DNA of 63,994 bases, counting the filler, from Candidatus Zhuqueibacterota bacterium (GTDB lineage: Bacteria; BS750m-G25), in assembly GCA_016783505.1 (NCBI GenBank). It is 3 parts of 3 records of this genome, joined end to end, with 100 filler letters (N's around TTAATTAATTAA, not from the genome) between each part and the next. Parts side by side here need not be neighbours in the genome. Positions count along the whole stretch, not along the records: positions 46,843 to 63,994 come from JADHWK010000047.1; 2 more parts are not named here. The stretch is one strand, 5' to 3'. The notes beneath the pieces were generated by a model. It searched no databases. It was given only the letters and a program-made list of their open reading frames with translations, and was not told the origin of the DNA. Shown piece after piece: positions 11,471-63,994 of the stretch. Position 1 is the stretch's first letter; each line of letters starts with the position of its first letter. A program made the translations under genes and the position numbers.

Positions 11471-11570
11471 GCTTCTATCATCCCAAATTCGGAAAACAAC
11501 GAATAATACTGAAATGATCGCTGATTGATGCTGGAGCCCAGGTTTTAACAATTGGCAATTAACAATCAAC

Positions 11571-11651
11571 AATATAAAGATTTATCGGCTATTTATCAAG
11601 ATTAATTTTAATCATTTTATTGTTGAAAAATTCATTTCATTCCCGTATATT
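11571..11651. promoter_or_regulatory. Back-to-back sigma70-type promoters between the two wecB genes
   Basis: Minus strand: TTGATA(11599-11594)-17-TATATT(11576-11571). Plus strand: TTGAAA(11623-11628)-17-TATATT(11646-11651), with the ATG at 11658. Confidence 0.6.
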
Positions 11652-11657
11652 TACTAT

Positions 11658-12863: not shown

Positions 12864-13104
12864 GATATTCGGTTACGTCAAAGGGTTGCGGTTGCGAGGC
12901 TTGTTTCGTCTTTAGTGGAACGGTTGCGTTCAAGGTCTCAACACTTTATACCATTGACCTATTAATCTTTAACACGATAACCGAAAACCGTATGACGATA
13001 TCCCGAGGCTTCGGGACAACCGACAGACGTTATACGCAACCCATTAATTATGTTGAAATTAATTTTTAGAAATTTTGGGAAGTAAATTTAACTCAGGGGT
13101 TAAT

Positions 13105-23676: not shown

Positions 23677-23776
23677 NNNNNNNNNNNNNNNNNNNNNNNN
23701 NNNNNNNNNNNNNNNNNNNNTTAATTAATTAANNNNNNNNNNNNNNNNNNNNNNNNNNNNNNNNNNNNNNNNNNNN
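23677..23776. other. Artificial contig linker
   Basis: N-run with a central TTAATTAATTAA (stops in all frames). Confidence 0.97.
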
Positions 23777-46382: not shown

Positions 46383-46540
46383 ACCCGGGAAAAAGCCTGA
46401 TCTGTTAACCTTTTTCCAAGGATACGGAGTATTGGAGTACTGGAATGTTGGAGTGTTGAAATGTTGTACCCATTATTCCATTGTCGTACCGACATTATTC
46501 GTTAAGAACTTCTTTTGAGCTGTTATCTTCATCGTTTATT

Positions 46541-46742
46541 ATGACCAAGATTACCTATAAAGATGTGGGGGTGGACATTCAGGCCGGGGAGGAGGCGGTA
46601 AGGTCTATCCGGAAAAAAGTCAGATCCACCTTTAATGGCCAGGTTTTAACCGACCTCGGCACCTTCGGCGCCCTCTTCCAGCCCAACTTGGAGGGTTACA
46701 GGGAACCGGTTCTGGTCGCCAGTGTGGACGGGGTGGGGACGA
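46541..46742 (+). CDS. purM: Phosphoribosylaminoimidazole synthetase (N-terminal part, cut by the gap)
   Basis: TYKDVGVDI, LGTFGALF, PVLVASVDGVGT. Confidence 0.9.
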
Positions 46743-46842
46743 NNNNNNNNNNNNNNNNNNNNNNNNNNNNNNNNNNNNNNNNNNNNTTAATTAATTAANN
46801 NNNNNNNNNNNNNNNNNNNNNNNNNNNNNNNNNNNNNNNNNN
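46743..46842. other. Artificial contig linker
   Basis: N-run with a central TTAATTAATTAA. Confidence 0.97.
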
Positions 46843-46843
46843 C

Positions 46844-48773: not shown

Positions 48774-49001
48774 ATGTGCTTAGCGGTGCCAATGAAGGTG
48801 ATCAAGATTGATGGGCAGGATGGACTGGTGGAGATAGGGGGGGTTAGGGGGGGTGTAAACCTTCAATTGGTGGAAAATATAAAAGTAGGGGATTATGTAA
48901 TCGTCCACGCCGGGTTTGCCATCGAAAAGCTGGATGAGGAAGAGGCGCAAAAGACAATCGCTATGTTTAAAGAAATGGAAAGGATGGCGTCCCGGTGCTA
49001 A
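48774..49001 (+). CDS. hypC: Hydrogenase maturation chaperone HypC
   Basis: MCLAVP, VGDYVIVHAGFA. Confidence 0.97.
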   Translation: MCLAVPMKVIKIDGQDGLVEIGGVRGGVNLQLVENIKVGDYVIVHAGFAIEKLDEEEAQKTIAMFKEMERMASRC

Positions 49002-49237: not shown

Positions 49238-49340
49238 GCTCGGTGAGGACACCTTTGCCCTAGTTACCTAATCAGGCCCAGGCCTCTTAACAATTTACAA
49301 TAATTATTTGTATCTATACTATTACAATGATTATAAAACC

Positions 49341-50423
49341 ATGAAATACGTTGATGAATTTCGGAATAATCGTGTCGCCCAACGCCTTTCCGAGGAGATA
49401 AAATCCCTTGCCAGGGATAGGGAAATGACCTTCATGGAGGTCTGCGGGGGGCACACCATTGCCATATTTAAATATGGGTTGAGGGACTTTCTGCCTCCGG
49501 GGATTCATCTGATCTCCGGTCCTGGATGCCCGGTCTGCGTGACCCCCACCGGGTTCATTGACCGGGCGGTGGCCCTGTCACGACGGAAAGAGGTGATCAT
49601 CGCCACCTTTGGGGATATGATCCGGGTCCCCGGGTCATCGTCCAGCCTCCGGGAGGAAAAGGCCCAGGGAGCAGATGTCTGGGTGGTCTATTCAGCCATG
49701 GATGCCATACCTGTTGCCAGAGACAATCCGGACAAAAAGGTGGTGTTTTTAGGCATAGGGTTTGAAACCACCGCTCCCACCATTGCCGCTACCATCCTGC
49801 AAGCTGACCGTTTAAGATTATCCAATTTCTTCGTCCTCAGCACCCTGAAGACCATGCCCAACGCCTTAAAAGCCCTGCTGGAGGGCGATGATATGGGGAT
49901 TCAGGGGTTCATTTGTCCAGGACACGTGAGCACCATCACCGGTCTGGGAATCTACGAATTCATCGCCCGGGACTATGGAGTGCCCTGCGTCATATCGGGC
50001 TTTGAACCCACTGACATTTTGCAAACCCTTTACATGTTGACCCGACAGGTGGGGGACGGAGTTGCTAAAGTAGAAAGCCAATACACCCGAACGGTGAAGC
50101 GGGAAGGGAACCCCTTGGCTCAGAAGACAATGATGGCTGTGTTCGAGCCCTGTGATATGGAATGGAGGGGGCTGGGAATCATTCCGGGCAGCGGGCTTAA
50201 AATCAGGGATGAATTTGTCCGGTTCAACGCGCTTCAACATTTTGATGTGGAAGTGGAACCGACCCGGCAGGAGCCGGGTTGCATCTGCGGGGACGTGATG
50301 AGGGGGGCCAAGACCCCCCTGGACTGTAAGTTGTTCAAGAAAACCTGTACCCCGGCTAATCCAGCCGGGGCCTGCATGGTTTCCGAGGAAGGGACGTGTG
50401 CTACGTATTTTAAGTACACCTAA
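49341..50423 (+). CDS. hypD: Hydrogenase maturation protein HypD
   Basis: MEVCGGHT, GPGCPVC, GFETT, PGHVS, GACMVSEEGTC. Confidence 0.97.
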   Translation: MKYVDEFRNNRVAQRLSEEIKSLARDREMTFMEVCGGHTIAIFKYGLRDFLPPGIHLISGPGCPVCVTPTGFIDRAVALSRRKEVIIATFGDMIRVPGSSSSLREEKAQGADVWVVYSAMDAIPVARDNPDKKVVFLGIGFETTAPTIAATILQADRLRLSNFFVLSTLKTMPNALKALLEGDDMGIQGFICPGHVSTITGLGIYEFIARDYGVPCVISGFEPTDILQTLYMLTRQVGDGVAKVESQYTRTVKREGNPLAQKTMMAVFEPCDMEWRGLGIIPGSGLKIRDEFVRFNALQHFDVEVEPTRQEPGCICGDVMRGAKTPLDCKLFKKTCTPANPAGACMVSEEGTCATYFKYT

Positions 50424-50424
50424 A

Positions 50425-51438
50425 ATGAAAACGGACGAAAAAATCACCCTGGCCCACGGCGGTGGGGGAAGGCTATCACGGGACTTTATCAAGAAAGTCC
50501 TGCTGCGATATTTTGGCAATCCCATTCTTTCCGAACTTCAGGATTCGGCCACATTTGACCTGACTGGAAACCGGGTCGCCTTCACCACTGACTCCTACGT
50601 GGTCAAACCCCTCTTCTTCCCGGGTGGAGACATCGGAAAGCTGGCGGTGGCGGGAACCATCAATGACCTGGCGGTGGTGGGTGCTCAGCCCCTCTATCTT
50701 TCCTGTGGGTTGATTATAGAAGAGGGGTTCGAACTGGGTCAATTGGAACGGATATTGGGGTCAATGCAGGAGACGGCCCGAAAAGCCGGGGTGAAGGTGG
50801 TGGCCGGGGATACCAAGGTGGTGGAGAAAAAAGGGGCCGATCAGCTTTTTATCAACACTGCTGGAATAGGGTTAATCAGGAAGGACCGATGCTTAAGCCC
50901 AGTCGGGCCTGGGATCGGGGACAAGATTATTATCAATGGGGGTTTGGGTGAACACGAAGCAGCGGTGATTTCTAGCCGGGAGGGGTTTGACTTCGAGACC
51001 GAAGTTGTCAGCGACTGCGTCCCTTTAAATGACTTGATTCAGGGCATTTTGAAGGTTTCCCCAAACGTGAAGTGGATGCGGGACCCTACCCGGGGGGGGC
51101 TGGCCGCCATCCTCAACGAGCTGGTTGAAGGAAAGCCCTTTGGGATCCGGATCGAAGAAGCCCAAATCCCGGTCAAAGAGGCGGTTAAGGGGATTTGTGA
51201 GCTGCTGGGGTTTGATCCCCTTTACATGGTGAACGAAGGAAAGGTAGTACTGGTTGTGGCCTGGGAAGACGCCGATCGGGTCCTGAAGATTATGCAGAAA
51301 CATCCTCTGGGTGGGGAGAGCCGCATCATCGGGGAGATCGTTCCCGAACCGGAAGGCAAGGTGGTTTTGAAGACGGGGGTTGGGGGGCATCGGGTAGTGG
51401 ATATGATGGTGGGGGAAATGCTGCCGCGGATCTGTTAG
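50425..51438 (+). CDS. hypE: Hydrogenase maturation protein HypE
   Basis: HGGGG, FFPGGDIG, RDPTRGG, C-terminal PRIC. Confidence 0.97.
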   Translation: MKTDEKITLAHGGGGRLSRDFIKKVLLRYFGNPILSELQDSATFDLTGNRVAFTTDSYVVKPLFFPGGDIGKLAVAGTINDLAVVGAQPLYLSCGLIIEEGFELGQLERILGSMQETARKAGVKVVAGDTKVVEKKGADQLFINTAGIGLIRKDRCLSPVGPGIGDKIIINGGLGEHEAAVISSREGFDFETEVVSDCVPLNDLIQGILKVSPNVKWMRDPTRGGLAAILNELVEGKPFGIRIEEAQIPVKEAVKGICELLGFDPLYMVNEGKVVLVVAWEDADRVLKIMQKHPLGGESRIIGEIVPEPEGKVVLKTGVGGHRVVDMMVGEMLPRIC

Positions 51439-51577: not shown

Positions 51578-51627
51578 TTGACAAAAATGTTTTTATTCTT
51601 TATCTTTATATGTTAAAAATTTAACGA
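51578..51627 (+). promoter_or_regulatory. Promoter with an overlapping Rex-box-like palindrome
   Basis: TTGACA(51578)-17-TATCTT(51601); ATGTTAA-aaat-TTAACGA at 51610-51627. Confidence 0.65.
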
Positions 51628-51631
51628 TCTT

Positions 51632-52261
51632 TTGTTGACCAAGAAGAAAATTCCCCAGAGTACCGTCTGGAGACTCTCCCAGTATCTGAATTGTCTCAGC
51701 TTACTTTCCTCCGAGAAATGCCGGGAAATCTCCTCCCATGAATTGGCTGAAAGGGTGGGCGTAAAGTCCACCCAGATCAGGCAGGATTTCCATTATTTTG
51801 GGGGATTCGGCCAGCCCGGATGCCGTTATAATGTGGGCCAGTTGATCGGGGAACTGGAGGCCATCTTAGGTCTTGACAAACCCCAGAACATGATCATCGT
51901 GGGAGCGGGAAATATCGGCCAGGCCCTGGCCCATTACGATAAATTTGAGCCCCTGGGCTTTAGGCTGAAGGGAATCTTTGATGTTAACCCCAGATTGTTC
52001 GGGCTTAAGATCAGGGGTGTTGGGGTCAGGGATGTGAAAGAGCTGCCCCGATTTGTCAAAGATCACCACATTAGAATTGGCATCATCACCACCCCGGCCC
52101 GGGTGGCTCAGTCGGTGGCTGATCTTTTGGTTCGCATAAAGATAAAGGGAATCTGGAATTTTTCGCCGATGAATGTCACCGCCCCGGAAGGGGTTTCCAT
52201 GGTAAACGAGAACCTTTCGGTGGGTTTAATGACCCTATCCCATAAGATCAAAGGAGGTTGA
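51632..52261 (+). CDS. rex: Redox-sensing transcriptional repressor Rex
   Basis: RLSQY, QIRQDF..FGGFG, VGAGNIG, IWNF. Confidence 0.93.
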   Translation: MLTKKKIPQSTVWRLSQYLNCLSLLSSEKCREISSHELAERVGVKSTQIRQDFHYFGGFGQPGCRYNVGQLIGELEAILGLDKPQNMIIVGAGNIGQALAHYDKFEPLGFRLKGIFDVNPRLFGLKIRGVGVRDVKELPRFVKDHHIRIGIITTPARVAQSVADLLVRIKIKGIWNFSPMNVTAPEGVSMVNENLSVGLMTLSHKIKGG

Positions 52262-52265
52262 TGGA

Positions 52266-52841
52266 ATGAAAGTCGAAAGGGTTATCAAATACGAAGCGGA
52301 GTTGGACAAAGATTTTTCCCAATGGGTAGTTTCCGTCCCAGGGGGCGAGCAGATACGGGATTGTATCCAGTGCGGTACCTGTAGTGCCACCTGTCCCCTG
52401 AGTATCTATATGGACTATACCCCGAGGAAGATTATCCTCATGGCCCATCAAGGGTTCAAAGAGGAAGTTTTAAGGAGTTTTACCCCCTGGCTGTGCGCTT
52501 CTTGTTATGCCTGTATGGTCAACTGCCCCCGGGAGATAAAGATTACCGAGATTATGTATATTTTGAAGGAAAAGGCGATAGAAGAGGGGATGTATCCTAA
52601 GAGATTTCCCATACCCGTCTTGGCCCGAGAGTTCACCCGTATGATCGTAAAGAAGGGTCGAAACCCGGAGACAAAACTGATCATTGCCCTGGCCCTGAGG
52701 ACCAACCCGTTGAACCTGCTGAAAATGGCCCCGCTGGGTCTTCGGTTGATGAAAGCAGGTCGGTTGGAAATAATGACTAAGTCTATCAAGGGTAAGGACC
52801 AGCTTAAGACCATGTTGCAATCCCTGGAGGCGACGACATGA
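52266..52841 (+). CDS. hdrC: Heterodisulfide reductase subunit C
   Basis: CIQCGTCSATCP and WLCASCYACMVNCP. Confidence 0.9.
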   Translation: MKVERVIKYEAELDKDFSQWVVSVPGGEQIRDCIQCGTCSATCPLSIYMDYTPRKIILMAHQGFKEEVLRSFTPWLCASCYACMVNCPREIKITEIMYILKEKAIEEGMYPKRFPIPVLAREFTRMIVKKGRNPETKLIIALALRTNPLNLLKMAPLGLRLMKAGRLEIMTKSIKGKDQLKTMLQSLEATT

Positions 52842-53704
52842 AAGAATATGCCTACTATCCCGGCTGTTCGGTAAAGGGGACAGCCAAGCATTACGAGGAA
52901 TCTTTACTGACGGCTTTTGATGTCTTAGGATTGAACCTAACCGAGCTTGAGGACTGGAACTGCTGCGGGGCGACTCTTGCCCTTGCGGTGAACGAATTAA
53001 AATCATTTACCATGGTATCGAGGAATCTGGCGCTGGCTGAAAAAACGGGTCTCGACATAGTGACTCCCTGCAGTGCTTGCTATCTGGTGCTCCTCAAAAC
53101 CCAGGATTATATCCGGCGTTATCCCGATATTAAGGCAAAAATAGATAGGGCGCTGAAGTCGGTGGGGATGGAATACCGGGGAACGGTGCGGGTGAAACAT
53201 ACCTTAGAAGCCCTGGTGAACGATGTAAAACTGGAAGAGGTTAAAAATAGGGTGACCCGACCCCTGAAGGGGTTTAAGGTGGCCCCCTACTACGGCTGCC
53301 AGATTGTGAGGCCCTATAAGGAGTTTGATCACCCCTTCTATCCCGATTCTATGGACAGGCTTCTTAAAGCCTTGGGAGCCGAGGTGGTGGATTATCCTCT
53401 GAAGACCGACTGCTGTGGGGCTGCCATTGCCGGGACTATGGAGGAGGTGGGGGTGAGGCTCAATTATGTCCTCCTGAAAGAGGCCCAGAAAAGGGGGGCC
53501 AATTGTGTGGTTACGGTCTGTCCCCTGTGCCAGCTTAATCTCGAACAGTATCAGGGAAAGATAAATAAACGCTTTAATTCGGATATATCCCTTCCCATAC
53601 TTTATTTCACCCAGCTATTGGGTCTGGCCCTGGGGGTCCCCGAAGAACGGTTGGGCTTTAACCGGGCGATGGTATCTGCCGATTCGCTTCTGGAGGCTGC
53701 TTAG
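52838..53704 (+). CDS. hdrB: Heterodisulfide reductase subunit B
   Basis: Two CCG domains: YYPGC, WNCCG, CSAC; YYGC, DCCG, CPLC. Confidence 0.92.
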   Translation: MKEYAYYPGCSVKGTAKHYEESLLTAFDVLGLNLTELEDWNCCGATLALAVNELKSFTMVSRNLALAEKTGLDIVTPCSACYLVLLKTQDYIRRYPDIKAKIDRALKSVGMEYRGTVRVKHTLEALVNDVKLEEVKNRVTRPLKGFKVAPYYGCQIVRPYKEFDHPFYPDSMDRLLKALGAEVVDYPLKTDCCGAAIAGTMEEVGVRLNYVLLKEAQKRGANCVVTVCPLCQLNLEQYQGKINKRFNSDISLPILYFTQLLGLALGVPEERLGFNRAMVSADSLLEAA

Positions 53705-53716: not shown

Positions 53717-54571
53717 ATGAATAAAAGGTTGAACGGAAGACCAAAAATCGGGGTATATATTTGCCACTGTGGAACGAACATTGCCAAGACGGTGAACATG
53801 GGTGAACTCGTCGGGTTCGCTTCCGGCCTGAACAGTGTAGGAGTAGCCCGAGAATATAAATATATGTGCTCAGACCCGGGCCAGGAAATGATTAAGAAGG
53901 ACATTAAGGAATTGGAACTGAACCGGGTTGTGGTTGCCTCCTGTTCCCCATTGCTCCATGAGCATACCTTCAGACGGGCCTGCGAAGACGCCGGATTAAA
54001 TCCTTATCTTTTTCAAATGGCCAACATCAGGGAGCACTGTTCCTGGGTGACCCCGGACCCGGCCCAGGCCACGGCCAAGGCCAAAAGGATCGTGGCGGCG
54101 GCAGTTGTACGGGTTGTTTATCAGGAACCCCTGGAGGTGAAGAAGGTACCGGTGAATCCCAATGTCGTGGTGGTGGGGGGAGGGATCACGGGTATTGAAA
54201 CTGCCCTGAGACTGGCCCAGTCAGGACGAAAGGTGTACCTGGTGGAACGGGAGCCCTCCATCGGGGGCCATATGGCCGAGTTAGACAAGACCTTTCCCAC
54301 CCTGGACTGCGCCGCCTGTATCCTCACCCCCAAGATGGGCGCCGTGGGGCAAGAACCCAACATTGAGCTTTTGACATATAGTGAGGTAGAAGATATTTCG
54401 GGATATGTGGGGAATTTCAAGGTCAAAATTCACAAAAAGCCCCGATATGTTGATCTAGAAAAATGTACCGGCTGCGGGCTGTGCTGGACTAACTGTCCCA
54501 CTAACATTGTTCCCTCAAAACGGGTGATTAGAAGGGGCGATTTGATCATCAATCAAACGGAGGTAGGTTGA
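53717..54571 (+). CDS. hdrA: Heterodisulfide reductase subunit A, N-terminal half
   Basis: ICHCG, YMCS, ASCSP, REHCSW, VVGGGITG, DKTFPTLDCAAC; ends after CTGCGLCWTNCP. Confidence 0.9.
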   Translation: MNKRLNGRPKIGVYICHCGTNIAKTVNMGELVGFASGLNSVGVAREYKYMCSDPGQEMIKKDIKELELNRVVVASCSPLLHEHTFRRACEDAGLNPYLFQMANIREHCSWVTPDPAQATAKAKRIVAAAVVRVVYQEPLEVKKVPVNPNVVVVGGGITGIETALRLAQSGRKVYLVEREPSIGGHMAELDKTFPTLDCAACILTPKMGAVGQEPNIELLTYSEVEDISGYVGNFKVKIHKKPRYVDLEKCTGCGLCWTNCPTNIVPSKRVIRRGDLIINQTEVG

Positions 54572-54924
54572 CCCTTAAGGAGATCGTAAAAATTCTCGGT
54601 TGTCAGGTGGTGGTGGGCAAGGAGACCCTGGATACTGAGGTGAGGGCCGGATGCGGCTGCGATCTGATGAGCGATGTATTAGCCTTTATTAAGCCCGACG
54701 CCCTGCTGTTGACCGGACTGAATAATCCCCAGGCGGTTCGCACCGCAGAGATATCCGAAATAAAGGTCATCTGCTTTGTCAGGGGTAAACAGCCCAGCGA
54801 AGCTATGATCGCCCTGGCCCGGGAAAAGGAGATCGCCATTTTAACTACCTCCCTGCCCATGTTCGAGGCCTGCGGTAGATTGTTTAAGAACGGTCTGATA
54901 GGCTGTTCTGAATATGATGAATAA
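54568..54924 (+). CDS. DRTGG domain protein
   Basis: CGCDLMSDVL, LLTGL, FVRGK, MFEACGRL. Confidence 0.8.
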   Translation: MTLKEIVKILGCQVVVGKETLDTEVRAGCGCDLMSDVLAFIKPDALLLTGLNNPQAVRTAEISEIKVICFVRGKQPSEAMIALAREKEIAILTTSLPMFEACGRLFKNGLIGCSEYDE

Positions 54925-54931
54925 AATTTAA

Positions 54932-55891
54932 GTGGGCACTTCCGTGGTTGATGAAAAGGAAATCACTAAGGTCCAGGAATTAGTCTATGAGTTGAAAGTA
55001 GGGCAGGTTATGGTTAAGGACGTTATTACGGTAACTCCCCATAATCTGATGAGTGAACTCCGGGACCTGTTACGTGATAAACGTATTTCTGGCGTTCCCG
55101 TAGTAGATAAAGGCAGATTGGTCGGTTTGGTCAGCATTGAGGACTTTATCAAATGTCTGACTGACGGCAAGATGGGCAGTCCCGTTGAAGAGAGAATGAA
55201 CCGGAACGTTAAAACCCTGTATGATAATGAGCCGTTGGTCCATGCGGTGAAAGAGTTTGACCGGATGGGTTACGGGCGTTTTCCGGTGGTGGATCGGGAA
55301 AGCGGAAAATTAATGGGGATAATCACCAAGGGGGACATCATTCGGGGTCTGCTCAAAAAGATGGAAATAGATTACCAGGAAGAGGAGATTCATCGCTATC
55401 GGGCCAGCCATTTCTTCGAAGACATTGTAGCTGATAAAACCACCCTCATATTCCAATATAACGTCATCGGCAAAGATTTTGATCGGGCCGGGGAGACATC
55501 CAGTGGACTCAAAAAGACCCTGAGAAGGATGGGGATCTCCCCAAAGGCTATCCGTCGGCTCGCCATAGCGACCTATGAAGCCGAGATGAACATCGTTGTT
55601 TTTACCGACGGGGGGGAGATAACCGCCCGGGTAACCCCACAGGAGGTCAGGGTGGAGGTGGTGGACTCTGGGCCGGGGATTCCTGATATTAAAAAGGCCA
55701 TGGAGCCCGGATTTTCAACGGCACCGGATTGGATCAGGGAGTTGGGTTTCGGTGCCGGCATGGGCCTGGCGAACATTAGGAAGTGTGCTGATGCGATGCA
55801 TCTTGAGTCCACCGTGGGCAAGGGAACCCGGCTGGAAATCACCGTTTATTTAAACGAGAAAGAGAAGCATGGTTCTGGGAACGATAGTTGA
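54932..55891 (+). CDS. CBS-pair plus HATPase (anti-sigma/serine kinase-like) protein
   Basis: ISGVPVVD and FPVVD CBS motifs; YEAEMN, DSGPGI, GFGAGMGL. Confidence 0.85.
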   Translation: MGTSVVDEKEITKVQELVYELKVGQVMVKDVITVTPHNLMSELRDLLRDKRISGVPVVDKGRLVGLVSIEDFIKCLTDGKMGSPVEERMNRNVKTLYDNEPLVHAVKEFDRMGYGRFPVVDRESGKLMGIITKGDIIRGLLKKMEIDYQEEEIHRYRASHFFEDIVADKTTLIFQYNVIGKDFDRAGETSSGLKKTLRRMGISPKAIRRLAIATYEAEMNIVVFTDGGEITARVTPQEVRVEVVDSGPGIPDIKKAMEPGFSTAPDWIRELGFGAGMGLANIRKCADAMHLESTVGKGTRLEITVYLNEKEKHGSGNDS

Positions 55892-56207
55892 AAAATTAGG
55901 TCTTGGGGTGAAGACCGCCCCGAGAGATCTCACCAGCGAGGTAACCGGGGCCTACGTCAGTGACCTGTTGAGCGACGTGATGGCCAACTCAAAAGAGGGG
56001 AACCTCTGGGTGACCCTTCAAGTTCATCCCAACATCGTAGCGGTAGCCACCCTTAAGGATCTTTCTGGTATTATCTTGGTGAACGGCCGCCAGCCCGCGG
56101 AGGAGACCCTTAAAAAGGCGGAGGAGGAGCAGATCCCCCTCATGACCACCGGGTTGCCGACCTTCCAACTGGTGGGAAAGTTGTACAATTTAATCGGGGA
56201 ATGCTGA
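55869..56207 (+). CDS. DRTGG-like protein
   Basis: YVSDLLSDVM, WVTLQVHPNIVAVA. Confidence 0.75.
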   Translation: MVLGTIVEKLGLGVKTAPRDLTSEVTGAYVSDLLSDVMANSKEGNLWVTLQVHPNIVAVATLKDLSGIILVNGRQPAEETLKKAEEEQIPLMTTGLPTFQLVGKLYNLIGEC

Positions 56208-56935
56208 GGGAATTCGAGGCCGACCTTCACATCCATACCTGCCTTTCCCCCTGTGGGGATCTGAAGATGTCCCCGGGAGGGATCGTGAAAGAGGCGGTAA
56301 AGGAAGGTATTGATCTTATTGCCATCTGCGATCATAACTCTTCCGAAAATGCCGGTGCTGTCATCAAGGCATCGGAGGGGAAAGGGGTTGCGGTTTTGCC
56401 GGGAATCGAGATCACATCAAAAGAGGAAGTCCACATTTCCGCCCTGTTTGACCATTTTGATGATGCCCTTAAGCTGCAGATGTTGATCTACGAAAATCTG
56501 GATGGTGAAAACGACGAGGAAGTTTTTGGCATGCAGGTGGTGGTGAATGAGAAAGGTGAAGTATTGGGGTTTAATAAAAAGCTTTTAATCGGGGCCACCA
56601 ACCTTTCCGTTGAAGAGATAGTCAATGCCATCCATTCCTTTCATGGACTGGCGATCGCTGCCCACATTGACCGGGAAGGGTTCGGGATCATCGGACAGTT
56701 GGGATTCATTCCCCCTGAATTGGGATTGGACGCCCTGGAAATTTCCCCTAAAATGGAAATGGAAGAAGCCCGAACGAGATTCAGCGAATATCATAAATAT
56801 CCCTTCCTGTGTTCTTCCGATGCCCATTATTTGGATGATATTGGCAAGGGGACGACCACCTTTCTGTTGGAGGAGGCGTCGCTTAAAGAACTCAGAATGG
56901 CCCTAAAGGGGGAAGGGGGTAGGGGAATTTGCTGA
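56201..56935 (+). CDS. PHP domain phosphoesterase
   Basis: DLHIHTCLSPC, CDHN, AHIDR, SSDAH. Confidence 0.88.
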   Translation: MLREFEADLHIHTCLSPCGDLKMSPGGIVKEAVKEGIDLIAICDHNSSENAGAVIKASEGKGVAVLPGIEITSKEEVHISALFDHFDDALKLQMLIYENLDGENDEEVFGMQVVVNEKGEVLGFNKKLLIGATNLSVEEIVNAIHSFHGLAIAAHIDREGFGIIGQLGFIPPELGLDALEISPKMEMEEARTRFSEYHKYPFLCSSDAHYLDDIGKGTTTFLLEEASLKELRMALKGEGGRGIC

Positions 56936-56957
56936 TAGCTGATAGCTGATTGCTGTT

Positions 56958-57491
56958 ATGGAAGACCTTTCCCTGCATATTTTGGATGTGGTTGAAAATT
57001 CCATAGACGCTGGTGCCCGAAAAGTTGAGATTAAGATTTACGAGGATTTGAAGAAGGACTTGCTTGAGATCGAAATTATTGACGATGGAAAGGGCATGGA
57101 CGAGGGGACTTTAGAAAAGGCTCTGGATCCATTTTTCACCACGAAGACGGTCCGAAAGGTGGGGCTGGGACTCTCCCTGTTCAGGGAAGCGGCTAGAATG
57201 GCAAACGGAGACCTTTCCATTCGATCGGAAGCTGGGCGGGGAACCACGATAAGGGCCACCTTTCAACACAGCCATATTGACCGCAAACCAATGGGAGATT
57301 TAGAAGAAACGCTTTTCACGTTAATCATTGGAAATCCGGAAGTAGTTTTTTCTTTCGCCTATTTAAAAAATGGAAAAATGTTTAACATGAATACAACGGG
57401 GCTAAAGAAAAAACTTCCAGGTAATTACTTCAGTTCATCGGAGGGAATTAAGGTTTTAAGAAATGAATTAAACAAACTGGATGGCTTTTAG
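56958..57491 (+). CDS. Stand-alone histidine-kinase-like ATPase
   Basis: ENSIDA, DDGKGM, DPFFTT, GLGL, HIDRKPMG. Confidence 0.85.
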   Translation: MEDLSLHILDVVENSIDAGARKVEIKIYEDLKKDLLEIEIIDDGKGMDEGTLEKALDPFFTTKTVRKVGLGLSLFREAARMANGDLSIRSEAGRGTTIRATFQHSHIDRKPMGDLEETLFTLIIGNPEVVFSFAYLKNGKMFNMNTTGLKKKLPGNYFSSSEGIKVLRNELNKLDGF

Positions 57492-57601
57492 GAAAAAGTG
57501 TTTCCGTGTTTCCATGTTTTGCCGAGGAGTTAATTTTAATTCTCTACAAATTTTAAGAATTACCCAGGAAGCTATAAAAGCCAAATTATCAAATTTACAG
57601 A

Positions 57602-58072
57602 ATGGAGGTAATGAAAATGGTAGTTGAAAAAGTCTTTGAAATAATTGAAGAATACAATCATGACCCAGGGGCTATATTCGAAGTACTTATTGATATTCAA
57701 AATGAGTTTAGTTATTTACCTGAGGAGGGGCTCGAGAAAGTTTCTAGAGAGTTAGAGATTCCCCTGAGTAGATTATATAGTTTAGCTACTTTTTATAAAG
57801 CTTTTAGCCTCACTCCCAAGGGAAGATATCCGATTCAAGTTTGTATAGGTACAGCCTGTCATGTCCGAGGAGGGCAGCGGATTTTAGAGAAACTTGAAAA
57901 GGAATTAGATTTAAAAACCGGAGAAACTACGGAAGATTTGAATCTCAGCTTAGACGCTATTAGATGTTTAGGAAGTTGTTGCTTGGCCCCAGTGGTCAAA
58001 GTTGGAGACGAGGTTTACGCTAATTTGACGCAGACCAGGATACCAGAATTATTGAAAAAATATAAAAAATAA
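57602..58072 (+). CDS. NuoE/HydC-like [2Fe-2S] subunit
   Basis: ATFYKAF, CIGTAC, CLGSC. Confidence 0.9.
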   Translation: MEVMKMVVEKVFEIIEEYNHDPGAIFEVLIDIQNEFSYLPEEGLEKVSRELEIPLSRLYSLATFYKAFSLTPKGRYPIQVCIGTACHVRGGQRILEKLEKELDLKTGETTEDLNLSLDAIRCLGSCCLAPVVKVGDEVYANLTQTRIPELLKKYKK

Positions 58073-58090
58073 AATTTAACGGAGGGAAAA

Positions 58091-58480
58091 ATGCCGAAAT
58101 TAACTTTAAAAGATTTAGAAAAAATCAGAGAAAAAGCAAGAAGGTCAACTATTCTTAGAGAAGGAGCCGGAAAAGCTAAAATTACAGTTCATATGGGAAC
58201 ATGCGGTATTGCAGCTGGAGCCAGAAATATTATGCGAGCTCTAGTGGAAGAGGTGGAAAGAGGAGGAGTAGAAGATGTAATACTTACTAATTCTGGATGC
58301 GCTGGACTCTGTAGTCATGAGCCCATGATGACTGTTCAAATTGTGGGGGGACCACCAGTTAAGTATGTTGACTTGACAGAAGAAAAAGCTAAGGAAATTT
58401 TTAAAAGTCACGTGATGGGTAGAGAAATTGTGAAAGAGTATGCCCTAGCAATAGGAAGTGAGCAAACATCAACTAAATAA
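58091..58480 (+). CDS. Thioredoxin-like [2Fe-2S] ferredoxin (HydD-like)
   Basis: MGTCGIAAGAR, GCAGLCSHEP. Confidence 0.85.
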   Translation: MPKLTLKDLEKIREKARRSTILREGAGKAKITVHMGTCGIAAGARNIMRALVEEVERGGVEDVILTNSGCAGLCSHEPMMTVQIVGGPPVKYVDLTEEKAKEIFKSHVMGREIVKEYALAIGSEQTSTK

Positions 58481-58709
58481 CTAAGCTATTCTAATTTTGA
58501 ATATGTGATGTTGTTGGAATGCATCCCCAAGCTTCAGGATGCATGCATTGATATGGTCAATCCACTCCAGACAGAAATGAAGAATATAGGTTACAAAACG
58601 GTTGGGACGATTCATATCAGTCGGGTCAGTTAGGCGCCTGAATGACATCTGATCGAAGCAAATATCTTATGTTTCAATAGCTTATTTAATAAATCGAAAG
58701 GAAAGATAA

Positions 58710-61700
58710 ATGGTTGAAAAGGCATATCGTTTACACGTGATGGTTTGCGCAGGCACTGACTGCGTTACTAATCGGTCTTTTGAAGTTCTAGAAGCATTAG
58801 AACGAGAAATTGAAAAACACAATCTTGAGGATGAAGTTTTAGTAGTCACCACCGGATGTAATGGCTTTTGCGCTGAGGGACCAATTCTTATTGTTCGTCC
58901 CGATGGTATTTTCTATCAAAGGGTGAAAAAAGAGGACATATCTTTTTTAGTTGAGGAGCATTTCCTAAAGGGGAGACCGGTTAAAAAATTGATGTACACG
59001 CCACCCGAGGCCGAACCAATTCCTAAGCTCAGTGAAATAAAGTTCTTTGGTAAACAGATTCTTATAGCCATGAGAAATCGAGGTTTAATCGATCCTGACA
59101 ATATAGAAGATTACATTGCTCGAGATGGTTATGCCGCCTTAGCGAAAGCTTTAGCCTCAATGACTCCAGAAGGGATTATTAAGGAAATAAAAGCATCGGG
59201 ATTGCGAGGGAGAGGAGGGGCTGGTTTTCCCACAGGGATAAAATGGGAGTTAGCAAGAAAAGCAGATGGTGAAACAAAATATATAATTTGTAACGCTGAT
59301 GAAGGTGATCCAGGAGCTTTTATGGATAGAAGTATAATGGAATCTGATCCTCATGCTGTAATTGAAGGAATGATTATTGGAGCCAATGCAATTGGTGCTC
59401 AAGAAGGTTTTATTTATGTCAGAAACGAATACCCAATGGCAAGAGAAAAATTAGCGAGAGCGATTGAGCAAGCAAGGGAGTATGGCCTCTTAGGAGAAAA
59501 TATTTTAGACTTAGGCTTTAACTTTGATGTTCATCTTCATCGGGGAGCAGGAGCCTTCGTTTGCGGAGAAGAAACAGCCTTGATCAATTCAATAGAGGGA
59601 AAGCCGGGAGAACCTCAAACAAGGCCTCCGTATCCAGTAGAAAGTGGGCTGTGGAAAAGACCAACTGTAATCAATAATGTTGAAACGTGGGCTAATGTTG
59701 CTGTAATCATCAATCGCGGAGCTAAATGGTATTCAAAAATTGGTACTGTAGGAAGTAAAGGAACGAAAGTGTTCTCCGTGGTAGGGAAAGTAATTGACAC
59801 AGGGCTTGTAGAGGTGCCAATGGGGACCACACTTGGAGAAATCATTTTTGATATTTGTGGTGGAATTCCAGGAGATAGAAAATACAAAGCTGTCCAGATT
59901 GGGGGACCCTCCGGAGGATGTTTATCAGCGAGTCACTTAAATTATCCAGTAGATTATGAAAGTTTAATTGAAGCTGGTTCAATTATGGGATCTGGTGGAA
60001 TGGTGGTAACTGACGAGAATACCTGTATGGTGGATTTAGCGAAATTTTTTCTCACTTTTACCAAAGACGAATCCTGCGGAAAGTGTACACCCTGTCGTGA
60101 AGGTATCCCCAGGATGCTTGAAATCCTTGCTAAAATCACAGAAGGCCGTGGTGAGATGGATGATCTAACAATGCTTGAGGTTTTAGCAACAACCATCAAA
60201 GCAACCGCCCTCTGCGGTCTTGGAAACACTGCTCCAAACCCTGTTCTTTCTACCCTTAGATATTTCAGAAACGAATATGAAAATCACATCAAATACAAAA
60301 AATGTGATGCAGCAGTCTGTAAGCAAATTATATCTTCACCCTGTCATCATACCTGCCCGATTGGAACAGACGTGCCATCGTATATCGCGCTCATTGCTCA
60401 AGGGCATTTCGATGAAGCGTTTGACGTCATCTGGGAAGAAAATCCTTTGCCCAGCATCTGCGGACGTGTCTGCAACCATCCCTGCGAGGTGAGATGTCGC
60501 TCCGGGGATATTGATAAACCCATTGCCATCAGAGACCTAAAACGTTTTGTCTGTGATCACAAAAATGGCCGAATAAGAAGTTTTCCGACACCCACCAAGA
60601 AATACGAGAAGGTGGCCATCATTGGTTCCGGTCCTGCTGGACTTGTCTGCGGATGGGAACTAGCGAAATTGGGTTACAAACCGACCATTTTTGAAGCGCT
60701 TCCAGTCGCTGGCGGTATGCTTGCTGTAGCAATTCCCGAATACAGATTACCCAAAGACATTTTGAATGAGGAAATCGAAGGCATCAAAAAGGCAGGTGTT
60801 GAAATTATTACTAACTTAAAAATCGGTAAAGACAAATCGATTGACGACCTTTTTAATGAGAGCTACAAAGCTGTCTTCATCGCAACGGGTGCTCATAACA
60901 ATCTGAAGCTGAAAATTCCCGGTGAGGATGCTGAAGGTGTTATTGACCCGATTGAGTTTCTCCGAAAGGTTGCCCTTGGTGAGGATGTAAAAATCGGTAA
61001 AAAGGTTGTGGTGATCGGTGGCGGTGATACGGCAATTGATTCTGCCCGGGCCGTTTTACGAATGGGCGCAGATGTCACCATCGTGTATCGCCGTACACGC
61101 ATTGAGATGCCCGCAGCTGCAGAAGAAATTGAAGCGGCGATGGAAGAAGGAATTCAGATGCACTTCCTCGCTACACCGGTTGAGGTAATCTCAAAGAATG
61201 GAAGACTTGCCAAAATCAAATGCGTCAATATGTCCCTTGGTGAATTTGATAAAGGGGGAAGGAGAAGACCAATCCCAGAAAAAGGCACAGAATTTGAAAT
61301 TGAGTGTGATACGTTCATCCCTGCCATTGGACAGAAACCCGACCTTTCATTTGTGAAAAACGGTAAACTTAAAACTTCGAAGTGGAATACGCTTGTAGTT
61401 AATTCTGAAACTCTGGAGACAGATCAACCTAGAATTTTTGCTGGCGGGGATGTTGTCAGTGGTCCTGCTACAGTGATTGAAGCCATGGCTGCCGGGAAAA
61501 AAGCTGCGGTTTCCATCCATAAATACCTGCGTGGAGAAAGTCTCGAGAGAACCTATGAAGTGACAAAACCAACCCGGGAAATCCCGGCGGTAGCGCTTAC
61601 TGAAGATGAATTGGTGACACTGAAACGACCGACAATGCCTTTTCTTTCAATGGACGAACGGAAAAGCAATTTCAAAGAAGTAGAACAGGGATTCACAAAA

Positions 61701-61751
61701 GAAATAGCAATCCAGGAAGCAAAACGCTGCTTGCGATGTGATTTGGAATAA
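58710..61751 (+). CDS. NuoF/HydB-like FMN-NADH subunit fused to a GltD/NfnB-like FAD-NAD(P)H domain
   Basis: GRGGAGFPTG, DEGDPGAFMDR, CGEET, GGPSG, CGKCTPC; then PCHHTCP, CGRVCNHPC, GSGPAG, GGGDTAID, YRRT, EAKRCLRC. Confidence 0.9.
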   Translation: MVEKAYRLHVMVCAGTDCVTNRSFEVLEALEREIEKHNLEDEVLVVTTGCNGFCAEGPILIVRPDGIFYQRVKKEDISFLVEEHFLKGRPVKKLMYTPPEAEPIPKLSEIKFFGKQILIAMRNRGLIDPDNIEDYIARDGYAALAKALASMTPEGIIKEIKASGLRGRGGAGFPTGIKWELARKADGETKYIICNADEGDPGAFMDRSIMESDPHAVIEGMIIGANAIGAQEGFIYVRNEYPMAREKLARAIEQAREYGLLGENILDLGFNFDVHLHRGAGAFVCGEETALINSIEGKPGEPQTRPPYPVESGLWKRPTVINNVETWANVAVIINRGAKWYSKIGTVGSKGTKVFSVVGKVIDTGLVEVPMGTTLGEIIFDICGGIPGDRKYKAVQIGGPSGGCLSASHLNYPVDYESLIEAGSIMGSGGMVVTDENTCMVDLAKFFLTFTKDESCGKCTPCREGIPRMLEILAKITEGRGEMDDLTMLEVLATTIKATALCGLGNTAPNPVLSTLRYFRNEYENHIKYKKCDAAVCKQIISSPCHHTCPIGTDVPSYIALIAQGHFDEAFDVIWEENPLPSICGRVCNHPCEVRCRSGDIDKPIAIRDLKRFVCDHKNGRIRSFPTPTKKYEKVAIIGSGPAGLVCGWELAKLGYKPTIFEALPVAGGMLAVAIPEYRLPKDILNEEIEGIKKAGVEIITNLKIGKDKSIDDLFNESYKAVFIATGAHNNLKLKIPGEDAEGVIDPIEFLRKVALGEDVKIGKKVVVIGGGDTAIDSARAVLRMGADVTIVYRRTRIEMPAAAEEIEAAMEEGIQMHFLATPVEVISKNGRLAKIKCVNMSLGEFDKGGRRRPIPEKGTEFEIECDTFIPAIGQKPDLSFVKNGKLKTSKWNTLVVNSETLETDQPRIFAGGDVVSGPATVIEAMAAGKKAAVSIHKYLRGESLERTYEVTKPTREIPAVALTEDELVTLKRPTMPFLSMDERKSNFKEVEQGFTKEIAIQEAKRCLRCDLE

Positions 61752-61793
61752 AAACGAAATGATATGATTTAATTTGGGAATGGGGAGAAAGAT

Positions 61794-63542
61794 ATGATAC
61801 AATTAGAAATAGACGGTCATATCGTCGAAGTTGAAGAGGGCACCACAATCCTGAAAGCGGCTGAAAAGCTGGATATCAAAATTCCCACTCTATGTTACCA
61901 TCCCCTTTTGGAGCCGTATGCTGCCTGCCGGATTTGCACCGTAGAAGTAATAGCAGAGGGCGTTTCCGAACTGGTCACTTCCTGCAATACCCAGGTTCAG
62001 GAGGGAATGGTCGTTCAGACCCAGTCAGAGAAATCCCTAAACGCCAGGCGGATAAACCTGGAGCTGTTGATGGCTCAGGCTCCGGCAGCCAGGGTCGTTC
62101 AGGAGCTGGCGGCAGAACTCGGGGTTGAAAAAACCAGGTTTACCATCGAAAAACCCGAAGAAAAGTGCATCCTCTGCGGATTATGCGTGCGAACTTGCGA
62201 GCAGGTGGTGGGGGTATCCGCTATCAGTTTTGTCAACCGGGGGCGTGACAGGGAGGTGTCTACCCCCTTTGAGAAGTCCTCGGAGGCTTGTATCGCCTGC
62301 GGGGCCTGCGCCTATTTCTGTCCCACCGAGGCCATTACTATGGAGGATGCGCTGGGCCGAGAGGTGCTCCACGATCAACTCTACTTAGGTCCCACCACTG
62401 CCATCCGTGTTCCTTTCCTCCAGGCAATTCCTAATGTGCCCTGCATTGACACTGAAGCCTGTATTCACTTCAAGACAGAGGAGTGCAAGCTCTGCGAGAA
62501 AGTCTGCGAGCCAGAGGCGATAAATCATGAAGCAACCGATGAATATGAAGAGATCGAGGTGGGGGCCGTTGTGGTGGCCACCGGATACGAACTCTTGGAA
62601 ATGAATGCGCTCCAAAGCTATGGATACGGTAAACTTCCTAATGTATTGACATCCCTGGAGTTTGAGCACCTGTGCCATGCCTCAGGACCTACCGGGGGTA
62701 AGGTACTGCTTCAGGACGGCCGGGAACCGGAAACGGTCGGTATTATTCACTGCGTGGGTTCACGGGATGAGAACTACAAATCCTACTGCTCCCGGGTCTG
62801 CTGTATGTATGCCCTGAAATTCTCCCACCTGGTAAAAGAGAAGACTTCCGCCGGGGTGTATGAGTTTTACATTGACATTCGGGCCCCGGGGAAGGGTTAT
62901 GAGGAATTCTACAACCGCATGCTGGAGGAGGACGTAATCTTCATTCGGGGTAAAGTGGCTGAGGTTAGCGATGTGGCCCTGATACCGGAGGAGGAGGGAA
63001 AACTGGTCCTCCGCTGTGAGGACACCTTGCTGGGAATTGTCCGTCGCATCCCGGTGGATATGGTGATACTCTGCCCGGCCATGGTGCCCCGGAAGGACGC
63101 CGGAGAACTGGCGCGACTGTTCGGCATTAGCTGCGGCGAAGACGATTTCTTCCGGGAGCTTCACCCCAAGTTGGCCCCCATCAATACTGCGGCAGATGGT
63201 ATCTTCGTAGCCGGGGCCTGCCAGGCGCCCAAGGACATCCCGGATTCGGTGGCCCAGGGGGCCGGAGCCGCCGGGGCTGTTCTTTCGCTCGGGGATACTT
63301 TTTCTATGGAACCCATCTATGGTGTAATTGACGAAGATTTGTGCGCCGGGTGTAAGGTCTGCATCGCTGTCTGCCCCTATGAGGCCATCATTTTCAATGA
63401 AGAGAAAAAGATAAGCGAGATCCAGGAAATGCTGTGCAAGGGGTGCGGGGCCTGCGTAGCCGCCTGTCCTTCGGGGGCCAGTTATCAAAAAGGCTTTAGG
63501 GACGAACAGATCATTGCTGAGCTGGAGGGAGCGCTCGTTTAA
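61794..63542 (+). CDS. Fusion of a HydA/NuoG-type N-terminal Fe-S domain and the HdrA C-terminal half
   Basis: PTLC...CRIC...C [2Fe-2S], CILCGLC, CIACGAC; then PFLQAIP, ATGY, HCVGSRD, CSRVCCMY, PKDIPDSV and two C-terminal [4Fe-4S] motifs. Confidence 0.88.
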   Translation: MIQLEIDGHIVEVEEGTTILKAAEKLDIKIPTLCYHPLLEPYAACRICTVEVIAEGVSELVTSCNTQVQEGMVVQTQSEKSLNARRINLELLMAQAPAARVVQELAAELGVEKTRFTIEKPEEKCILCGLCVRTCEQVVGVSAISFVNRGRDREVSTPFEKSSEACIACGACAYFCPTEAITMEDALGREVLHDQLYLGPTTAIRVPFLQAIPNVPCIDTEACIHFKTEECKLCEKVCEPEAINHEATDEYEEIEVGAVVVATGYELLEMNALQSYGYGKLPNVLTSLEFEHLCHASGPTGGKVLLQDGREPETVGIIHCVGSRDENYKSYCSRVCCMYALKFSHLVKEKTSAGVYEFYIDIRAPGKGYEEFYNRMLEEDVIFIRGKVAEVSDVALIPEEEGKLVLRCEDTLLGIVRRIPVDMVILCPAMVPRKDAGELARLFGISCGEDDFFRELHPKLAPINTAADGIFVAGACQAPKDIPDSVAQGAGAAGAVLSLGDTFSMEPIYGVIDEDLCAGCKVCIAVCPYEAIIFNEEKKISEIQEMLCKGCGACVAACPSGASYQKGFRDEQIIAELEGALV

Positions 63543-63777
63543 GAAGCAGAGGAGCAAGGGGGCAGAGGTGCAGAGGGGAGAAGAGATTTAAAACCATTGT
63601 CCATAGCTCCCCAGTAAAAGAGGATTGGCGAAAGTTTGTTCTTAAATCCATTAGTTAGCCGAAATGCTTGCAGAAAAGAGGCGATAATTATGACCAATTT
63701 AGAGAATTTGAGAATAAGATTCTTATCAAACAACAGAATTAGTAGTATACTTTACAACAATACGGAGGCTTAGATTC

Positions 63778-63994
63778 ATGGCCAACAACAATTTCGAACC
63801 AAAACTGGTGGGATTTTTATGCCGCTGGTGTTCTTACCAGGGGGCCGATCTGGCCGGCACCAGCCGTATTGAATATCCCCCCAACCTGGTTCCCATACGG
63901 GTGATGTGCTCCGGTCGGGTGGACCCCGTCTTTGTGCTGAAGGCCTTCTCCCGGGGGGCGGATGGGGTCATCGTCTTCGGCTGTCATCCTGGGG
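63778..63994 (+). CDS. mvhD: MvhD/FlpD [2Fe-2S] subunit (runs off the window)
   Basis: Hand translation [27 protein letters not shown]...[10 protein letters not shown]...[13 protein letters not shown]. Confidence 0.92.

Follow-up and report, generated by a model that had tools for sequence, protein, structure and literature searches.

An hdrA gene split around a HydBC-type NAD(H) module may encode a hybrid Mvh–Hdr–Bfu complex in a Zhuqueibacterota bacterium

How modules are combined in flavin-based electron bifurcation is an active question, and bifurcation lets many anaerobes live at the thermodynamic limit. The Mvh–Hdr, Bfu and Nfn-like kinds of enzyme are already known. Here we describe a gene cluster at the end of a 63,994-nucleotide stretch of DNA from Candidatus Zhuqueibacterota bacterium (assembly GCA_016783505.1); this whole stretch is called the window below, and all cluster genes lie on its + strand, from 46.9 kb to the window end. 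The hdrA gene of this cluster is broken into an N-half of 284 residues (53717–54571) and, eight genes later, a protein of 582 residues in which the remainder of HdrA is fused behind Fer2_4 and Fer4 domains (61794–63542). A sequence-only reading of the same DNA had proposed this arrangement, and open reading frame (ORF) calls, Pfam domains and HdrA alignments confirm it. Judged from its sequence, the cluster encodes, with a probability that we put at roughly 55%, one hybrid complex of a [NiFe] Mvh hydrogenase, HdrABC and a HydBC/Bfu-type NAD(H) module. The assembly, wiring, substrates and direction proposed for this complex are read from observed gene content, domain boundaries, conservation and recurrence. 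What would be new is an HdrA outlet plugged into a HydBC-type core.

The cluster resembles the MvhAGD–HdrABC complexes of methanogens (5ODC, 8RVU and 7BKB) in having full-length HdrB and HdrC, the four HdrA domains with their cysteine motifs, an adjacent mvhD and nearby hyp genes, with mvhG and mvhA present in the closest relatives. It differs from them in its bacterial host, in an HdrA made of two polypeptides and broken in the inserted ferredoxin domain, and in the fusion of that domain to a BfuA-type Fe–S domain, whereas in methanogens it faces free ferredoxin. With the Bfu family (HydABC, NiFe-HydABCSL and NfnABC/Stn, as described in the consulted parts of PMC9304861 and PMC11829005) the cluster shares HydC-like and HydB-like subunits, the flavin mononucleotide (FMN)/NADH domain, the B1 cluster and the N-terminal [2Fe-2S] domain. 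As in Type 1 Bfu enzymes, the N-terminal domain of BfuA type is joined to another ‘catalytic’ part; unlike in the rest of the family, that part is two thirds of HdrA. The cluster also differs from NfnABC, since in the window a GltD module replaces the C-terminal ferredoxin domain of HydB whereas the GltD-like domain of NfnABC sits in subunit A. The 2022 survey of the family distinguishes 12 types of third reaction and, in its main text as consulted, Bam–Bfu alone among HdrA-linked enzymes (PMC9304861); a BfuA–HdrA fusion is absent from its Table 1 and section 5, and its supplementary tables could list such a gene order.

In class II benzoyl-CoA reductase (BamBCDEFGHI), a HydBC-type module feeds an HdrA-type module, as proposed in PMC9304861 and described in the consulted part of a 2026 preprint that gives the first structure of a two-module enzyme (10.64898/2026.04.10.717634). 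The operon described here would be a second, differently wired natural combination. Like the reductase, it would link an HdrA-type flavoprotein and an HdrBC-like subunit to a HydBC-type module by way of a BfuA-like subunit. In the reductase, according to the same part of the preprint, BamE receives electrons at its C-terminal ferredoxin domain, on the input side, from BamI by way of the MvhD-like BamF, and the inserted domain leads to the tungsten enzyme. Here, by contrast, the BfuA domain is fused ahead of the second motif of the inserted domain, on the outlet side, and mvhD and the hydrogenase hold the input side. A Pfam scan of the cluster found no AOR or tungsten subunit, which sets it apart from coupling of the benzoyl-CoA reductase type. 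In HdrA9–11 of ANME-1 (Chadwick et al. 2022, PMC9012536), the inserted ferredoxin domain is likewise interrupted by an extra flavin module, an NfnB-like insertion of 500 residues. Single-ORF HdrAs of Chloroflexota are the bacterial counterparts of these proteins. Both are one polypeptide with a GltD/NfnB module only, whereas the window has HdrA in two pieces, separated by a complete NuoE/NuoF(+GltD)/BfuA set and regulators.

A literature search found no description of a BfuA–HdrA fusion or of an hdrA split by nuoEF. The novelty claimed by the sequence-only reading is narrower than was supposed, because the benzoyl-CoA reductase coupling and the ANME-1 insertion were already known. Sulfate reducers have FlxABCD–HdrABC, in which an NAD(P)H-linked module is likewise joined to a bacterial HdrABC; Flx is unrelated to NuoEF, and its entry point would be the MvhD-like FlxD rather than the inserted ferredoxin domain.

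The two pieces of HdrA cover nearly all of the known protein. The N-half aligns with residues 3–260 of solved HdrA 5ODC_A (E 4.9e-101), and residues 198–581 of the fusion protein align with residues 276–653 of HdrA 8RVU_a (E 2e-107). The NCBIfam HdrA2 model, which describes an HdrA–MvhD fusion, is tiled nearly end to end by the N-half (1–257), the fusion (264–639) and mvhD (643–711), so almost no HdrA sequence was lost at the break. The N-half contains the N-terminal cluster domain, the first part of the thioredoxin-reductase-like flavin adenine dinucleotide (FAD) domain with its GGGxxG loop (here GGGITG) and, towards its C terminus, the first CxxCxxCxxxCP motif of the inserted ferredoxin domain (C250–C260), followed by a tail of 24 residues. 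C16, C18, C51, C76, C198, C201, C250, C253, C256, C260 and P261 are invariant in all six genomes with the split. The N-halves keep the cysteines of the N-terminal domain, which align with those of 5ODC_A, as well as C198 and C201, which lie in FPTLDCAAC, the region of the cysteine that one protomer supplies to its partner (Cys197 of solved HdrA; PMC9012536, in the part consulted). On the fusion protein are the CxGSRD...CSxxCC cluster motif of the FAD domain (C320, C332, C336 and C337, invariant) and the C-terminal 2×[4Fe-4S] ferredoxin domain (C517–C527 and C548–C558, also invariant), and all 24 of its motif cysteines are unchanged across the six genomes. The elements of the FAD domain, glycine loop and cluster motif, are therefore all present, spread across two polypeptides.

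The break falls between the two cysteine motifs of the inserted 2×[4Fe-4S] ferredoxin domain, which no single chain holds entire: motif 1 is on the N-half and motif 2 on the fusion. In intact bacterial HdrAs from related loci, motif 1 reads CxGCGxCxxxC and is followed about 47 residues on by motif 2, C-x7-C-x2-C-x3-C. The fusion has three motifs in this part: C125–C135 and C166–C176, which form the BfuA pair and lie 41 residues apart, and C223-x7-C231-C234-C238, which is motif 2; an HdrA-type linker, LGPTTAIRVPF..., sits between the BfuA pair and motif 2. Four motifs make whole clusters only if the motif of the N-half pairs with motif 2 of the fusion, and we infer from this that the inserted ferredoxin domain would be assembled in trans from the two chains. 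A phmmer alignment had placed C166–C176 on HdrA motif 1. We rejected that assignment because the BfuA domain needs both of its motifs (the match to 9MQX_A covers residues 2–195), three motifs on a chain cannot form whole clusters and the N-half keeps an invariant fourth motif.

Residues 1–195 of the fusion form an N-terminal domain of the HydA/NuoG/BfuA type, in which one [2Fe-2S] motif and two [4Fe-4S] motifs are present. They match HydA of a bifurcating [FeFe]-hydrogenase (8A6T_A, E 1.7e-37, residues 1–185), a 247-residue NuoG-like chain (9MQX_A, E 3.7e-35, residues 2–195) and the HoxU and group A6 hydrogenase models of NCBIfam. Fer2_4 spans residues 1–78 and the two Fer4 motifs come next, which gives the [2Fe-2S] and [4Fe-4S] chain of BfuA; to say that the catalytic domain of HydA has been replaced by HdrA, as the earlier reading did, is thus a fair description. 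The His-ligated cluster is absent from the fusion, as the Pfam scan returned no PF10588 match and residues 79–124 contain neither His nor Cys. The top look-alike of the fusion in the Atlas was a 54-member Fer2_4+Fer4 cluster, mostly from Chloroflexota, with a score of 0.97 that is a lead and not an alignment.

A single scan of species-representative genomes, queried with the fusion protein, gave 20 loci (L001–L020); such a scan reaches fairly close relatives only, and the counts are lower bounds. Full-length fusions with 52–68% identity were found in five loci, from two unclassified bacterial metagenome-assembled genomes (L001 and L002), Aminicenantes (L003) and Dehalococcoidia (L004 and L005). 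In every one of them hdrC, hdrB, the hdrA N-half, nuoE and nuoF lie upstream of the fusion, so that the gene order and the fusion that the sequence-only reading had set as search targets recur together. HdrA is split at one identical alignment position in the window and these five genomes, the BfuA adaptor is covalently joined to the HdrA C-part in all six, and the N-half is 63–72% identical across phyla with every ligand cysteine kept. After the fusion come mvhD, mvhG (Oxidored_q6) and mvhA (NiFeSe_Hases) in the three closest relatives (L001, L002 and L003), which answers for these relatives the earlier question of whether hydrogenase genes follow mvhD.

The other loci hold related forms. A GltD/NfnB-like module lies between the HdrA parts in four: in L006, L010 and L012 (Chloroflexota) the NfnB-inserted HdrA is a single ORF of 1117, 1114 and 1123 residues, respectively, and L011 has the same order with a broken ORF call. 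The NfnB-inserted hdrA of L006 is followed by mvhD, mvhG and mvhA. Four copies of HdrA are intact, in L007, L008, L009 and as a second copy in L010. L013 and L014 contain short pieces, L015–L019 match the BfuA-like part only and L020 matches a ferredoxin motif only. Genes resembling flxDCBA lie near hdrA in L004 and L010.

The split could be an artefact, either of a frameshifted or decaying hdrA or of a chimeric metagenome assembly, and the window does contain four masked runs of N and a change in composition at about 57.3–61.8 kb. We consider this very improbable. Gene order, break point and fusion are alike in five independent assemblies from different lineages; both halves are open with invariant motifs; and the HdrA break and the fusion junction sit in high-GC parts, away from the composition boundaries. 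Because the same split and fusion recur and the cluster cysteines are invariant, the split is neither decay nor artefact; against decay, the sequence-only reading had already argued from the open halves, their motifs and the overlap with the next gene. The last 4 bases of the N-half gene, in its stop codon region, also belong to the next gene, which starts with TTG and is preceded by GGAGG; this overlap suggests translational coupling of the two genes.

The genes between the HdrA parts comprise a diaphorase set of the HydABC/Bfu type along with regulators usual for such operons, in agreement with the sequence-only reading. The NuoE/HydC/BfuC-like [2Fe-2S] subunit (57602–58072; PF01257, E 1.9e-47) has as its best solved matches the HydC subunits of bifurcating hydrogenases (8A6T_C, 1.3e-42; 7P5H_C; 7T2R_C) and also matches NfnC (9N5U_C, 6e-37); the match is full length and takes in the C-terminal [2Fe-2S] domain of BfuC. 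It is followed by a small thioredoxin-like [2Fe-2S] protein (58091–58480; PF01257, E 6.9e-06), which we take to be HydD-like and which matches the N-terminal domains of HydB-type subunits (8OH5_B, 1e-14; 9BOV_B). The third gene (58710–61751; Pfam Complex1_51K, NADH_4Fe-4S, Fer4_20 and Pyr_redox_2) encodes a 1013-residue fusion in which residues 1–540 are NuoF/HydB/BfuB-like and residues 541–1013 are NfnB/GltD-like, with two [4Fe-4S] clusters, FAD and an NAD(P)H site. Its NuoF part (residues 5–542) is closest to HydB of bifurcating NiFe- and FeFe-hydrogenases (E 2.2e-224, for 7T2R_B, and 2.2e-214). In an alignment of eight rows (the window, L001, L002, L003, two copies from L004, L005 and L012), C456, C459, C462 and C502 are invariant in 8/8, and the FMN/NADH domain and B1 [4Fe-4S] cluster of BfuB are accordingly present.

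In its C-terminal part this protein departs from HydB. Residues 543–1011 match 9BOV_A and residues 543–967 match NfnA (9N5U_A), in both cases the NfnB-like domain located inside subunit A of NfnABC-type enzymes, and the same part matches the NfnI large subunit (5JCA_L, 4.2e-99). Fer4_20 at 531–618 and Pyr_redox_2 at 634–929 mark it as a flavoprotein module of the NfnB/GltD type. The two-motif C-terminal ferredoxin domain of BfuB (clusters B3 and B4) is present in six rows of the alignment (L002, L003, both L004 copies, L005 and L012) and is missing from the window and L001, where the Fer4_20 domain of GltD takes up the same position, directly behind the conserved pair C532/C537. No NfnA/S partner subunit (FAD plus [2Fe-2S]) was found among the 18 cluster proteins scanned.

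If these genes were merely interleaved, the cluster would encode two separate enzymes: an Mvh–Hdr that uses the HdrA C-piece only, and a transhydrogenase-like NuoEF/GltD enzyme, with the N-half as a leftover. The composition of the nuoE-to-gltD cassette, unlike that of its neighbours, would fit such an origin, as would the fact that NuoF–GltD fusions of about 1000–1100 residues are common by themselves (at least 10 Atlas clusters with 55–139 members and scores of 0.94–0.99, again leads and not alignments). We nevertheless find the proposal unlikely: the BfuA adaptor is joined to HdrA without exception in the six genomes, the C-part alone would lack the GGGxxG loop and the N-terminal cluster domain, and a leftover N-half would hardly retain its sequence and ligands across phyla or overlap the next start codon.

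A predicted complex of the fusion, FAD and the N-half, built from six-row alignments, rebuilds the FAD domain from the two halves with a score of 0.87, against 0.00 for the best of three controls, although this pass may reflect memory of HdrA solved as one chain. In calibration the score mark was reached by 58/80 solved complexes and 2/110 mismatched pairs. At least 98% of contacts are shared between the runs, and the predicted local distance difference test (pLDDT) values of the partner are 90 or higher. In the contacts with the lowest error, strand 256–263 of the fusion pairs with strand 149–159 of the N-half in the Rossmann sheet of the FAD domain; the modelled N-half motif and tail (249–283) touch the second HdrA motif of the fusion (222–245) and its BfuA ferredoxin domain (160–175). 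The model indicates that the two halves are compatible, not that they bind.

For the hybrid complex we propose the following mechanism. HdrA would be made as two polypeptides and then reassembled, with the FAD domain built from both, and H2 would be oxidized by MvhAG, which by synteny should be encoded just past the window end. One electron would exit from the HdrA flavin through HdrC and HdrB to a disulfide. According to the consulted parts of PMC9012536 and of the benzoyl-CoA reductase preprint (10.64898/2026.04.10.717634), low-potential electrons leave HdrA through the inserted ferredoxin domain; according to those of PMC11829005 and PMC12018979, BfuA clusters lead to the B1–FMN–C1 site, the minimal bifurcation site, and the Bfu core meets ferredoxin at the C-terminal domain of HydB (B3 and B4). 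Because the BfuA chain here continues the outlet domain of HdrA covalently, the low-potential, ‘uphill’ electron from the HdrA flavin would be passed by wire, and not by free ferredoxin, to the FMN–cluster core of NuoE and NuoF. Coupled low-potential electrons would then reduce NAD+ and, in the window copy, also NADP+ through the GltD module, whereas relatives with a canonical HydB would reduce ferredoxin; the net reaction would be reversible. The sequence-only reading had NADH and NADPH sites wired into the HdrA flavin. The joining of a Bfu module to HdrA bears this out, but the point of attachment is the inserted ferredoxin domain, that is, the described low-potential outlet.

That reading also spoke of possibly two bifurcating centres; the domains predict three flavin sites, namely HdrA FAD, NuoF FMN and GltD FAD. 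In the window version both usual docking places of ferredoxin are occupied or replaced. A more speculative extension, which we think doubtful, is a three-flavin cascade that dispenses with free-ferredoxin docking and strings together two or three sites able to bifurcate by their low-potential arms, with the two-chain 2×[4Fe-4S] domain as the link. If this were true, bacteria in H2-poor sediments could use the cascade to reduce NAD+ and NADP+ with H2, the energy being supplied by disulfide reduction, and in relatives that keep the HydB ferredoxin domain ferredoxin could be driven far below −500 mV. Evolution would then have used the inserted ferredoxin domain of HdrA as a general ‘socket’ and filled it repeatedly, by NfnB alone, by BfuABC and by BfuABC+GltD.

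The same complex might instead run in reverse. NAD(P)H, with ferredoxin in the relatives, would be the donor and would enter HdrA through the inserted ferredoxin domain, and HdrA would reduce a disulfide, evolve H2 through Mvh, or both, acting as an NAD(P)H-driven disulfide reductase or a hydrogen-evolving valve. We regard this as a serious rival, although not as the probable reading. Bfu enzymes are reversible, and L004 and L005 lack an adjacent mvhD, so that NAD(P)H may be the sole donor there. In class II benzoyl-CoA reductase, as far as the consulted sources describe it, the HydBC-type module is a confurcating input to the HdrA-type module; that input, however, enters the C-terminal ferredoxin domain of HdrA through an MvhD-like adaptor, whereas here mvhD (with mvhGA in relatives) holds the input side and the Bfu adaptor sits on the outlet domain. 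The operon is also headed by rex, encoding an NADH/NAD+-sensing repressor (51632–52261; NCBIfam NF003990, E 8.3e-72, above its cut-off), a gene that the sequence-only reading had passed over. Rex ends 4 bases before the start of hdrC and is probably the first gene of the operon, and the top promoter-like site of the region (51578–51606, 10-of-12) lies just before it. The regulatory argument loses force from a search for Rex operators with a consensus and at most 3 mismatches, which gave six matches against 3.72 expected, a number reached in 16/100 shuffles, with none inside the promoter region upstream of rex or hdr; a Rex operator there was dropped as a candidate. Counts of promoter-like and terminator-like sites between 51.3 and 64 kb (17 and 12, against 15.6 and 13.6 expected) are uninformative on the limits of the operon.

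Besides the caveat attached to the structural model, several observations weigh against the hybrid complex with H2 as donor. The window ends inside mvhD, of which the first 72 codons are present (63778–63993; PF02662 FlpD, E 2.6e-29), so that mvhG and mvhA are inferred from relatives in this genome. L004 and L005 have neither an adjacent mvhD after the fusion nor mvhG/mvhA, and the hydrogenase link is therefore not universal. The 2022 survey counts a C-terminal ferredoxin domain of HydB in every true Bfu core, and NuoF of the window has none; with GltD in place of that domain, the window copy falls outside the cofactor definition of the core given there. The cassette from nuoE to gltD also differs in composition from its surroundings: GC content at third codon positions (GC3) is 0.33 for nuoE, 0.24 for the 2Fe-2S gene and 0.31 and 0.42 for nuoF–gltD, compared with 0.56–0.69 for the flanking genes of the cluster, both parts of the HdrA fusion included. 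The breaks at about 57.3 kb and 61.8 kb are both gene boundaries, and the same clusters in L001–L004 are homogeneous, which points to a recent import or replacement of the cassette, an assembly chimera being less likely.

Trees of HdrA likewise do not unite the split forms. In trees of 13 rows, which omit the partial loci L011, L013 and L014, the window groups with L001 and L002 (100/99 in the C-part tree and 99/98 in the N-part tree), and both split forms from Dehalococcoidia fall in a clade of seven with intact and NfnB-inserted forms (99/95 and 97/97). An approximately unbiased (AU) test of one clade for the six split rows, a group named after the first tree was seen, rejected it for the C-part (p 1.05e-06) and the N-part (p 0.042). 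We thus discarded a single origin of the split; it may have arisen more than once, or its history may have been overwritten by recombination between paralogues.

The architecture recurs in uncultured sediment and subsurface lineages, among them Aminicenantes, Dehalococcoidia and unclassified bacteria. Annotation usually treats their ‘MvhADG-HdrABC’ and ‘NuoEF’ genes as belonging to separate enzymes, and the metabolism reconstructed for these groups may therefore be mis-wired. The split is also a natural experiment on HdrA, in which the flavin domain and the ferredoxin domain would each come from two chains.

The map of the remaining cluster genes rests on ORF calls, Pfam domains and NCBIfam models. 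The 5′ end holds the [NiFe]-hydrogenase maturation genes, whose position upstream of the hdr cluster Pfam corroborates: hypF (46889–48556; HypF_C_2/Sua5/HypF_C, a 5′-truncated ORF), hypC (48774–49001; HupF_HypC), hypD (49308–50423; HypD) and hypE (50398–51438; AIRS/AIRS_C). After rex come hdrC (52266–52841), a two-[4Fe-4S] subunit with Fer4 dicluster families that scores about 1e-22 with both the HdrC and QmoC models of NCBIfam, under their cut-offs, and hdrB (52838–53704), with two CCG domains. HdrB matches solved HdrB over its full length (8RVU_b, E 3.1e-52, residues 3–286 against 2–289). Among NCBIfam models it scores 1.9e-65 with SdhE, the ‘membrane anchor’ of methylmenaquinol:fumarate reductase, and 2.3e-60 with HdrB, both under their cut-offs.

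The regulator block (54568–57491) consists of a DRTGG protein (54568–54924, TTG start), a CBS pair with a SpoIIAB-like HATPase (54932–55891, with an NCBIfam spIIAB-like match), a second DRTGG protein (55869–56207), a PHP phosphoesterase (56201–56935) and an HATPase (56958–57491), all identified by Pfam. L002 and L003 share the block and have in it a further gene, Fe_hyd_lg_C, for a sensory [FeFe]-hydrogenase-like protein that is missing from the window; L001 has the NuoF–GltD fusion and no regulators. The SpoIIAB-like kinase of the window has an N-terminal CBS pair, and comparison with L002:3820–5610 and L003:3848–5670 makes it seem that the sensor input of the block has been exchanged.

Related loci yielded three further observations. 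In L010 (9221–17961) an intact and an NfnB-inserted hdrA stand in tandem, followed by mvhD and flxCBA-like genes; the two copies are sisters in the N-part tree (99/96), which suggests recent duplication or gene conversion. Downstream of the NfnB-inserted hdrA of L012 (11057–22084) lie a sigma-54 gene, an [FeFe]-hydrogenase-like domain fused to a histidine kinase and a sigma-54 activator, and further on nuoE, nuoF, a free BfuA-like gene, mvhD and a NiFe small subunit; the set resembles a group 3c hydrogenase linked to Bfu and accompanied by a two-component system that senses H2. In L004, the split-HdrA cluster is directly followed (8849–13656) by a free BfuA-like gene (with PF10588), nuoE, nuoF, a metV-like gene (DUF5981) and metF, which make up a candidate Bfu-linked methylene-tetrahydrofolate reductase.

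In the window, at 46460–46900, the hypF ORF begins in its Sua5/YrdC domain and has no acylphosphatase or zinc-finger part; directly upstream of it, beyond two 44-base runs of N, lie the first ~67 codons of a purM-like gene, and this juxtaposition may be a rearrangement or an assembly join. The four runs of N are exactly 44 bases each and are paired 12 bases apart, at 23677–23776 and 46743–46842; they are masked or unresolved stretches. The remainder of the window is ordinary bacterial chromosome, with nusA, infB, pnp, ftsH, tilS and ribF, and an Rfam scan of the whole window found three tRNAs only. On the − strand, at 7736–10117, a 793-residue ORF resembling an epimerase/GDP-mannose dehydratase is interrupted by an intein with a LAGLIDADG domain.

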